Below, piece by piece: positions 12,978 to 17,444 of a stretch of DNA of 64,000 bases. The notes under the pieces were generated by a model. The model was not told where the DNA came from. It searched no databases and saw only the letters and a program-made list of their open reading frames with translations. Location: assembly GCF_003334335.1 (NCBI RefSeq), contig NZ_QOWQ01000029.1; one strand, 5' to 3'. Origin of the DNA: Escherichia coli. Lineage in GTDB: Bacteria > Pseudomonadota > Gammaproteobacteria > Enterobacterales > Enterobacteriaceae. Both the position numbers and the translations under genes were made by a program. How positions within the stretch are numbered: position 1 is the stretch's first letter; every line of letters begins with the position of its first letter.

Positions 12978-13946
<969 letters not shown>

Positions 13947-16091
13947 TTAAAGTGCACAGGAGACGCAGCCTTCAATTTCAGTGCCTTCCAGCGCCATCTG
14001 ACGCAGGCGGATGTAATAGAGCGTTTTGATACCCTTGCGCCAGGCGTAAATCTGCGCTTTGTTGATATCGCGAGTGGTGGCGGTATCGGGGAAAAAAAGC
14101 GTCAGCGACAGCCCCTGATCGACATGGCGAGTCGCTTCCGCGTAGGTGTCGATGATCTTTTCTGCGCCAATTTCGTAAGCGTCCTGATACAGCGCCAGAT
14201 TCTCGTTAGTCATAAACGGGGCAGGGTAGTAAACGCGTCCTGTTTTGCCCTCTTTGCGTATCTCTACTTTCGCCACAATCGGATGAATACTCGACGTAGC
14301 ATGGTTGATATAAGAGATAGAACCGGTTGGCGGCACCGCCTGAAGATTCTGGTTGTATATGCCGTAGCGCATCACGTCGTCGCGCAGCTGCGCCCACATC
14401 TCACGGGTAGGTAACGTAATACCGCTACGGGTAAACAGTTCGCCAACTTTCGCCGTTTTCGGCTGCCAGTTCCCTTGCAGATATTGGCTAAAATATTCAC
14501 CACTGGCATAGCGTGACTGTTTGAACCCGGCGAAGGTTTCACCGCGTTCGCGTGCCAGCAACATCGAGGTACGCAGTGCATGCCAGGTGATGGCATAGAA
14601 ATAGAGATTGGTGAAATCCAGTGCTTCCGGCGAACCATAAGCGATGCCTTCTCGCGCCAGATAGCCGTGTAAATTCATCTGCCCCAGTCCGATGGCGTGC
14701 GAGGCGGCATTTCCGGCTTCGATGGACGGCACGCTGCGGATATGACTCATATCTGATACTGCCGTTAAACCGCGCACGGCAGTCTCTACCGTGCGGGCAA
14801 AATCGGGGGAATCCATGGTGTGCGCAATATTCAACGAACCTAAATTGCAGGAAATATCATGGCCTGTGCGGGTATAGTCGAGATTCTCGTCATACTCTGA
14901 GGCGCTGTTAACCTGCAAAATTTCTGAGCAGAGATTACTCATATTTATGCGCCCGGCGATAGGGTTAGCACGGTTTACCGTGTCTTCATACATGATGTAG
15001 GGATAGCCGGACTCAAACTGGATTTCTGCCAGTCGCTGGAAGAAATCACGGGCGTTGAGGTATTTTTTGCGAATGCGTTCATCGGCAACCAGTTCGTCAT
15101 AGTGTTGGCTGATGGCCACATCGGCAAACGGCTTGCCATAAACTCGCTCTACGTCATAAGGCGAAAACAGCGCCATCTGCGCATTCTCTTTTGCCAGATG
15201 GAAAGTGATATCCGGGATCACCACGCCAAGCGACAGTGTTTTAATGCGGATTTTTTCGTCGGCATTTTCCCGTTTCGTGTCGAGAAAACGCAGAATATCG
15301 GGATGATGAGCATGTAAATAGACTGCACCAGCCCCCTGACGAGCGCCGAGTTGGTTGGCATAGGAAAATGCGTCTTCCAGCATTTTCATCACCGGAATTA
15401 CGCCAGAAGATTGATTTTCAATACGTTTAATTGGCGCGCCCGCTTCTCGCAGATTCGACAGCAAAAATGCTACGCCGCCGCCGCGTTTCGACAGCTGCAG
15501 TGCGGAATTTACCGCCCGACCAATCGACTCCATATTGTCTTCAATACGCAGCAAAAAACAGGAAACCAGTTCGCCGCGCTGCTGCTTACCGCAGTTGAGG
15601 AATGTTGGCGTGGCTGGCTGAAAGCGTCCTGACAGCATTTCATCGGTCAGTTGCAACGCCAGCGTCTCATCGCCTTGTGCCAGCGTCAGCGCCACCATCG
15701 TTACTCGATCGGCAAAATCTTCCAGATAACGTTTACCGTCGAATGTCTTCAACGTATAGCTGGTGTAAAACTTCCATGCCCCGAGGAATGTCTGGAAACG
15801 AAAACCGCTGGTGTGTGCGTGGGCAAACAGCGTAATGACAAAGTCGCGAGAGTAGCGATTAAGAACGCTTTCATCATAGTAACCTTCGTTGACCAGCCAG
15901 TTCAGGCGCTGCTGCTGGCTACTGAAGGTCACACTGTTCGGACGCACATGCGTCGCAATAAAGGCGTCAACGGCCTGGCGGTCTTTATCGAACTGAATGC
16001 GACCTGCGCTATCGTAGAGGTTAAGCATCGCATTCAGCGCGTGGTAATCCATCGTTTCCTGCGTCAGGCATTCTGCGGTTGTCGTTGCCAA
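13947..16091 (-). CDS. nrdE: Class Ib ribonucleotide reductase alpha subunit
   Basis: 714-aa ORF; C-terminal GCVSCAL redox tail. Confidence 0.95.
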
Positions 16092-16474
16092 AATTCGGTT
16101 ACTCCTTTACGAACGTTTTCGATATCGCTTTGCGTACCCATGAGTTCAAAACGGTACAGCCACGGCACGCCGCATTTCCGGGCAATCACATCTCCGGCGC
16201 GGCCATACGCCTCACCAAAGTTGCGATTACCAGAAGCAATAACGCCGCGAAGCAACGCCCGGTTGTGCTCGTCGTTTAAAAAGCGAATTACCTGTCGTGG
16301 CACCGCGCCAGCCGTACCGCCGCCGCCGTAAGAGGGCACGATCAGGATGTAAGGCTCGTCTACCTGAATCCGTTCCCGCTCATTGAGCGGGATGCGCACC
16401 GCGGGCAGACCTAAACGTTCGATAAAACGCTGCGTGTTTTCGGAGCTGCTGGAGAAGTAGACGAGCTGGCTCAT
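16064..16474 (-). CDS. nrdI: Flavodoxin-like NrdI
   Basis: 136-aa ORF overlapping the nrdE start by 28 nt. Confidence 0.93.
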
Positions 16475-16716
16475 GCACTGGCCGCGTGTGGCGCTGGATG
16501 CAGACGGTTAATCATGTCCGGACGGAAACCAGACCAGCTAAGATCGCCAGCAATCACTACCGGCAACTGACGAAAGCCCTGAGCACGCAACGCTTCTGCC
16601 GCTTCAGGAACGCGATCGACATTAATCATTTCAAAATCAAAGCCCCGGTTTTCCATCGCCCGTTTGGTGGCGTGGCACTGAACGCAATCGTTACGAGTGT
16701 AAATAGTAATGCGCAT
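16471..16716 (-). CDS. nrdH: Glutaredoxin-like NrdH
   Basis: 81-aa ORF with CVQC redox motif. Confidence 0.93.
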
Positions 16717-16860
16717 GATTCGTATTTCCGTTTAAAATGAAGATACGGCGCGATGATACGCGTCGGGTTGTCTCTCTGTTGATACAGAGATACTAGATGT
16801 AGTTGAAAAAAGATTCAACCACACAATATATAGCAAATATTGGTCGAAATTACCCTGGAT
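16717..16860 (-). promoter_or_regulatory. nrdHIEF promoter region with NrdR-box-like palindrome
   Basis: AT-rich region upstream of nrdH containing ACACAATATATAG and a second partial palindrome; Fur and NrdR regulation is from memory. Confidence 0.5.
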
Positions 16861-16899
16861 ATGAGCGTGACGGGGTAGGGGGATTTTTGTGATTCACCA

Positions 16900-16932
16900 G
16901 GCAAAAAGAAACCCCGAAGACAGGCTTCGGGG
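16900..16932 (-). terminator. Rho-independent terminator after ygaM
   Basis: Minus strand ACCCCGAAGCCTGTCTTCGGGGTTTCTTTTTG. Confidence 0.7.
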
Positions 16933-16963
16933 TCAAAGACGCGTATTTATTATCATTTTTGCA

Positions 16964-17293
16964 CTACGATTTGCGCATGCTTAACAGTGCGCCGATAAAA
17001 ATACCTACCGCAGCTGCTGTACCCACGCTACACCAGGGTCTTTCACGAACAAAAGAATCCGCGCAGCCAACGGCATCGCGCGCGGCTTGCTGGACGCGAG
17101 TACGACCATGCATTCGCGCCCTGGTTTCTTTCAGCAATGCCTGAGCTTTACTGCGTGCGGCTTCAGCTTCCCCTTTGGCGTCGCTGCCCCAGGACTTCAA
17201 TACAGATTCGAGGCTGTCAGCTAATTGATTGACATCATTCTGGATATCCTGCACGCCATCATCAACGTCGTTGCGGTTCGGTCGGTTAAACAT
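16964..17293 (-). CDS. ygaM: DUF883/ElaB-family ribosome-associated membrane-anchored protein
   Basis: ORF 16964..17305; start moved to MFNRPNRNDVDD; C-terminal TM helix. Confidence 0.8.
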   Translation of the reverse strand: MFNRPNRNDVDDGVQDIQNDVNQLADSLESVLKSWGSDAKGEAEAARSKAQALLKETRARMHGRTRVQQAARDAVGCADSFVRERPWCSVGTAAAVGIFIGALLSMRKS

Positions 17294-17444
17294 ATGATCC
17301 CCCATTAGAATTCGATGTAATTTTCAGTGTAGACCATAATTTTCTTAACTGAGGTTCATCGCGGCTTTATGGACTTTTCTGAAAGCGTTGTGAATGCGCA
17401 ATCAGGTAAGGTAGGCCCGCGGTTGATAATAACGAGGATCAAAT

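Follow-up and report, generated by a model that had tools for sequence, protein, structure and literature searches.

The closest described system is the NrdR operator of the nrdHIEF promoter of Escherichia coli K-12, which was reportedly studied by Torrents in 2007. It has since been characterised in biochemical detail. In the MST assays of Rozman Grinberg et al. 2025 (PMC12176259), the 57-bp 'nrdEF' probe carries two underlined 16-mers (i.e., NrdR box 1 and NrdR box 2) and was bound with a KD of 138 +/- 32 nM in the presence of ATP-dATP and of 187 +/- 36 nM in the presence of ADP-dATP. NrdR with ATP alone did not bind this probe, and a control promoter was also unbound. Mutation of box 1 or box 2 brought the KD up to 69,000 nM or more and 130,000 nM or more, respectively, and GFP production from the nrdHIEF promoter was repressed in vivo only when the linker between the boxes measured 15–17 or ~26 bp (Shahid et al. 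2025, PMC12051234). Moreover, single isolated boxes showed no NrdR binding, the conserved positions of the NrdR box were given as C4, A6, A8, T9, T11 and G13, and binding was abolished both by G44C (i.e., G13C in box 2) and by the combination of T12G with G13T in box 1 (bioRxiv 10.64898/2026.05.11.724285). Upon deletion of NrdR, expression of the class Ib operon was derepressed 25–50 fold (PMC3458845) or >150-fold (PMC4409342).

The box pairs of the E. coli nrdDG and nrdAB operons share this architecture (16-bp boxes, a 15-bp linker and the C4...G13 signature) and are bound with a similar KD of 113–160 nM (PMC12176259), but they differ from the nrdHIEF pair in their box sequences and in their co-regulators (FNR and H-NS, DnaA). 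In nrdAB, furthermore, the functional pair lies downstream of its promoter and box 2 has a central AG (PMC12176259).

The window examined here is a 64,000-nucleotide stretch of the E. coli chromosome. The 901 bp around the boxes described below have matches in 5,422 of the 5,426 complete E. coli genomes and are 99.9% identical to K-12 MG1655, where the RefSeq annotation gives the genes as ygaM, nrdH, nrdI, nrdE and nrdF. E. coli NrdR itself is documented in the literature; the nrdR gene (b0413) is outside the 64-kb window. An intrinsic terminator (16934..16910) comes after ygaM, whose end is at position 16964, and bounds the nrdH control region on its upstream side; this region therefore extends roughly from 16717 to 16910. 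The features of the locus are as follows.

12978..16716, minus strand: regulated operon nrdHIEF (open reading frames and MG1655 RefSeq annotation)
12978-13937, minus strand: nrdF (open reading frame)
13947-16091, minus strand: nrdE (open reading frame)
16064-16474, minus strand: nrdI (open reading frame)
16471-16716, minus strand: nrdH (open reading frame), with its ATG at 16716
16717..16782, minus strand: predicted 5′ leader of nrdH, ~67 nt when the putative start base 16783 is included (promoter geometry)
16783, minus strand: putative transcription start, an A, the seventh base after the –10 hexamer (promoter geometry)
16790..16795, minus strand: putative –10 hexamer TAGTAT, the last six bases of box 2, invariant in 80/80 loci
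16790..16805, minus strand: NrdR box 2, sense CAACTACATCTAGTAT, plus strand ATACTAGATGTAGTTG
16806..16820, minus strand: 15-bp linker between the boxes, sense GGTTGAATCTTTTTT, of the same length as in the PMC12176259 probe
16813..16818, minus strand: putative sigma-70 –35 hexamer TTGAAT, read from the sequence inside the linker, its TTGAA near-invariant in 80 species
16821..16836, minus strand: NrdR box 1, sense TTGCTATATATTGTGT, plus strand ACACAATATATAGCAA, directly upstream of the –35 hexamer
16836-16854, minus strand: weak candidate Fur-bound region, sense GGTAATTTCGACCAATATT, 11/19 to the Fur consensus, adjoining box 1
16910..16934, minus strand: intrinsic terminator of ygaM (terminator scan; 10-pair stem followed by a T run)

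The initial annotation had pointed to two palindromic strings upstream of nrdH that resembled paired NrdR boxes a few helical turns apart. Both strings occur exactly, and once each in the window, i.e., ACACAATATATAG at 16821-16833 and CTAGATGTAGTTG at 16793-16805. The operon indeed runs on the minus strand as had been stated, but the letters quoted are those of the plus strand, a point of minor consequence for near-palindromes. The second palindrome is likewise real but had been drawn three bases too short, full box 2 being the 16-mer listed above. On the sense strand, the order upstream of nrdH is TTGCTATATATTGTGT-GGTTGAATCTTTTTT-CAACTACATCTAGTAT (16 bp + 15 bp + 16 bp), and all six of the positions C4, A6, A8, T9, T11 and G13 are present in box 1 as well as in box 2. 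Both boxes match the published core C.[AT].[AT][AT].[AT].G, with a C..G spacer of 21 nt between them, and the cores begin 117 and 86 nt upstream of the nrdH ATG, i.e., in the promoter region of a ribonucleotide reductase (RNR) operon. An NrdR pair is expected to have a linker of 15–16 bp and centres ~31–32 bp apart, at an integer number of helical turns; here the linker is 15 bp and the centres lie 31 bp (about three turns) apart, in agreement with this spacing.

Box 1, linker and box 2 together make up 47 bp that agree at every base with the core of the 57-bp 'nrdEF' probe (PMC12176259), which supports the earlier proposal of paired NrdR boxes in the nrdHIEF promoter. The K-12 operator thus has the same 47 bp, the same 15-bp linker and the same place upstream of nrdH, and the only difference from the K-12 probe is one base in its 5-bp flank, outside the boxes, where the window has a sense A (plus-strand T, position 16840) and MG1655 has a C. 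The palindromes are therefore the textbook, already characterised and already known NrdR operator of E. coli nrdHIEF. Nucleotide-dependent specific binding, the requirement for two boxes, the dependence on their spacing and repression in vivo are all published for this exact sequence, and finding the operator here adds no new NrdR biology. We put the probability that the region 16780-16840 is an NrdR operator laid over the nrdHIEF core promoter, and bound by the NrdR tetramer when dATP is high, at roughly 0.96.

The chance expectation was considered separately for single boxes and for the pair. With the degenerate consensus ACACWATATATWGTGT and up to 3 mismatches, only box 1 was found, at an expectation of 0.51 per window, and the published core regular expression gave 245 single matches and 4 pairs in the 64 kb. 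The published pair expression is thus too permissive for genome-wide use and is useful only upstream of RNR genes. In simulated windows, the score of box 1 was equalled or exceeded by a single site in 24% of cases and that of box 2 in 12%, so that either box alone is within chance expectation in 64 kb.

Because one box alone is unremarkable, a weight matrix was built from independent boxes, i.e., 18 boxes without those of nrdHIEF, taken from E. coli nrdAB and nrdDG (PMC12176259) and from Listeria and Streptococcus operons (PMC12051234). Pairs were scored at centre distances of 30–33 bp, with 100 first-order Markov simulations of the window as the null. A scan of this kind had been proposed together with the boxes, and it ranked box 2 first (15.3 bits) and box 1 second (14.2 bits) among 63,985 positions, well above threshold; the training boxes themselves score 9.4–23.1 bits. 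The pair reached 29.5 bits, against 15.3 bits for the runner-up pair and a simulated maximum of 20.05 bits, and none of the 100 simulations attained 29.5 bits. The box pair is far beyond chance.

Two further candidates were rejected. A third pseudo-box with its core at 16834-16843, one turn upstream of box 1 and separated from box 2 by a linker of ~24–25 bp, scores only 2.7 bits. A pair at 33845-33902 (19.1 bits) becomes the second-best NrdR-like pair if its 26-bp linker is allowed, but is most likely a chance occurrence, since its second box lacks G13. This pair sits in AT-rich intergenic DNA of the CP4-57 prophage remnant, near ypjA.

Conservation was assessed on one genome per species, yielding 80 Enterobacteriaceae nrdH loci in an alignment anchored on the –10 hexamer. 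The box pair was present at the same place in all 80 loci, matching the strict regular expression in 75 and showing one deviation in each of the other 5. In those 75 loci, the C..G spacer is 21 nt and the pair lies 115–119 nt upstream of the ATG. One of the deviating loci combines A6G in box 2 with a linker of 14 bp; the other four, from the Klebsiella oxytoca group, have 9 bp from C to G in box 1, a variant that is tolerated in one box (bioRxiv 10.64898/2026.05.11.724285).

Across the 80 species, positions 6–9, 11 and 13 of box 1 are invariant and C4 is kept in 76, so that five of the six critical positions are invariant, and the variation falls mainly at positions 3, 5, 10 and 15, outside the critical six. 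This pattern mirrors the NrdR logo. As the whole of box 1 precedes the –35 hexamer, its pattern is not attributable to RNA polymerase contacts. Box 2 is near-invariant throughout (positions 4, 7–9 and 11–16 are invariant), but this is partly due to its overlap with the –10 hexamer and is therefore not independent evidence for NrdR. Within the linker, GGTTGAA is conserved and the remainder is variable.

The putative core promoter, TTGAAT-17 nt-TAGTAT, is the only conserved sigma-70-like arrangement and matches the consensus at 8 of 12 positions, which is why it was missed by our promoter scanner with its cut-off of 9/12. The arrangement that the scanner reported further downstream, TCAACA-18-TATCAT (16782..16753), was dropped as it is not conserved. 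A Salmonella report places a Fur box 309 bp upstream of the nrdH start site, and the best Fur match (14/19) in the Salmonella locus of our set (L012) has its proximal end 309 bp upstream of the base equivalent to 16783. The putative transcription start at 16783 agrees with that distance. Given these –35 and –10 hexamers and a start at about 16783, box 2 would cover the –10 hexamer and part of the spacer, and box 1 would abut the –35 hexamer.

On this geometry, the 15-bp linker and the 31-bp distance between centres would place both boxes on the same face of the helix, and one NrdR tetramer would occupy them both, with a Zn-ribbon dimer on each box. In the published structures, NrdR is a tetramer whose Zn-ribbons touch DNA in pairs. 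According to the tetramer/filament mechanism described in PMC12176259, the tetramer requires ATP-cone domains loaded with dATP plus either ATP or ADP, i.e., it forms only when deoxynucleotides are plentiful, and ATP alone drives NrdR into filaments or higher oligomers in which the DNA-binding residues are hidden. At high dATP, one tetramer would thus bridge both boxes and occlude the promoter. Since box 2 holds the –10 hexamer and the linker holds the –35 hexamer, RNA polymerase is most likely kept off the promoter by the bound tetramer, as is probably the activator IscR. The positions of the –35 and –10 hexamers and of the start, as well as occlusion as opposed to bending or another mode of repression, are what we infer here. 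In 2010, the mechanism of NrdR repression was stated to be unknown (PMC2892513).

Of the other readings of these palindromes, the one that survives best is that IscR is the main ligand of box 1 and the –35 region, through a type II site, and that NrdR is secondary. IscR is reported to activate nrdHIEF from a type II site that overlaps the –35 element, which is embedded in the right half-site (PMC8561392), and a plus-strand CCACA at 16819-16823, straddling the border of box 1 and the linker, reads as a candidate CCxYA half-site. However, only this one half-site is recognisable, the expected partner 15 bp away being absent by reading, and the type II site belongs to a different protein with a different motif from the NrdR boxes. 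Binding of IscR, moreover, is not exclusive of NrdR and leaves box 2 and the 31-bp phasing unexplained, and the strong derepression of the class Ib operon upon NrdR deletion (see above) also speaks against a secondary role for NrdR. We hold a primarily IscR-bound site to be very unlikely. Since the putative half-site spans the end of box 1 and the start of the linker, it rather suggests that IscR may compete with NrdR at this border.

A second alternative, that the palindromes are Fur boxes and that iron rather than nucleotide control acts at 16790-16836, is one to which we accord scarcely any likelihood. The Fur box (consensus GATAATGATAATCATTATC, or TGAnAATnATTnTCA in its 7-1-7 form) is likewise an AT-rich palindromic operator, nrdHIEF is repressed by Fur and is a core member of the Fur regulon, and Fur is said to bind near the NrdR site (PMC12051234). 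The interval nevertheless holds no adequate match: consensus scans of 16780-16840 with the 19-mer and the 7-1-7 15-mer found no contained 19-mer at 11/19 to GATAATGATAATCATTATC and no 15-mer above 7/12 to TGAnAATnATTnTCA. An information-theory model of Fur also rates the nrdHIEF site as weak, at 10.1 bits (Chen et al. 2007). The initial annotation had named NrdR and Fur together as regulators; joint control stands as far as Fur is documented for the operon in the literature, but no Fur-like site was found inside 16780-16840 by these consensus scans.

Around the NrdR operator, several Fur matches of low quality are present. The candidate at 16836-16854 adjoins box 1, two further 11/19 matches surround the nrdH start codon (16702-16720 and 16711-16729), and the best match near nrdH (13/19, sense AAAAATGATAATAAATACG) lies at 16942-16960, just downstream of the ygaM stop codon. 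The window contains 25 sites at exactly 13/19 and 31 at 13 or more, so that the matches near nrdH (11–13/19) are at chance level and none is convincing as a site. Neither did a Fur scan across the 80 species find a positionally conserved strong match. According to PMC12051234, the NrdR and Fur sites both fall within 143 bp of the ATG on its upstream side, which makes 16836-16854 or the start-codon region a better candidate than the distal 16942-16960. The distal match is shared only with one close Escherichia relative (L003), and the PnrdH cloning primer of PMC3458845 has its 5′ end at the same place. At 16836-16854, the O157-type allele described below has CGTAATCA, an 8-mer that is called a Fur box in PMC3458845.

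Finally, the idea that the palindromes are nothing but core-promoter or UP-like elements for RNA polymerase, with an incidental likeness to NrdR boxes, is compatible with the invariant TAGTAT in box 2, the conserved TTGAA in the linker and the chance-level frequency of single-box matches in 64 kb, but is close to untenable and in practice refuted, as box 1, upstream of the –35 hexamer, keeps C-N-A-N-AT-N-T-N-G (five positions invariant, C4 in 76/80) while positions 3, 5, 10 and 15 vary, a matrix derived from other operons and phyla ranks both boxes best in the window and at canonical spacing, and mutation of C4 and G13 is published to cost NrdR binding and repression.

Besides the NrdR operator itself, the region upstream of box 1 shows variation within the species. 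Over 16400-17300, the window departs from MG1655 at one base, 16840, where the plus strand has T for G (sense A for C). This base belongs to the weak Fur-like stretch and precedes box 1 by four bases. Of the 5,426 complete genomes of E. coli, only that of O176:H45 strain MIN9 has the exact 60-mer 16811-16870. This rare sense A might alter the relative influence of Fur, IscR and NrdR. In ~26% of E. coli genomes (e.g., O157:H7), a gene of the carboxymuconolactone-decarboxylase family, and not ygaM, stands directly upstream of nrdH, and in these same genomes ~70 bp upstream of box 1 are strongly diverged (window 16831-16900; positions 480-620 of locus L082). The O157-type box 1, TTACCATATCTTGTGT, keeps the critical positions and scores 11.3 bits on the weight matrix; from the middle of box 1 to the ATG, this allele is identical to the window.

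The predicted nrdH leader has conserved elements of its own, among them a highly conserved ribosome-binding region. A perfect 6-bp hairpin, CTCTGT-ATCA-ACAGAG (16774-16789, minus strand), extends from the first base after the –10 hexamer and lies around the putative start; it is confined to the Escherichia loci, among which E. albertii and E. whittamii carry variants, and is absent from those of other genera. In the middle of the leader, the GC-rich palindrome CCGACGCG-N6-CGCGCCG (16734-16754, minus strand) is conserved across 77 distinct Enterobacteriaceae leaders. When it is modelled as a stem of 7 pairs, 79% of cells are paired and covariation is only weak (20 of 500 shuffles reach the observed value), RNAalifold on the 77 leaders yielded a 3-pair consensus only, and an Rfam search of 16600-17050 returned nothing near the gathering threshold. 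The palindrome may be either an RNA hairpin or a protein site.

Furthermore, the 80 species share a hyper-conserved block that spans the nrdH start codon (–24 to +21; 16696-16740, minus strand). Its mean identity upstream of the ATG is 0.92, and the synonymous third positions of codons 2–8 have a mean identity of 0.89 vs. 0.70 in later codons. The block comprises the imperfect inverted repeat AAATACGAAT-N6-ATTACTATTT and the two 11/19 Fur matches, and could reflect a constraint on translation initiation, an operator or an sRNA target. Either the start-codon block or the GC-rich palindrome could be an operator (perhaps a Fur site) or an element of translational control or RNA stability, although we regard the presence of additional, as yet undescribed control elements in the nrdH leader as rather unlikely overall.

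In conclusion, a genuine operator was recognisable from raw sequence, and it is the best-studied NrdR binding site. Small leads lie in the rare single-base change beside box 1, in the alternative upstream alleles within the species and in the conserved leader elements. Through NrdR, the transcription of all RNR operons is tied to the balance of dATP and ATP, and the protein has come under discussion as a target for antibacterials.
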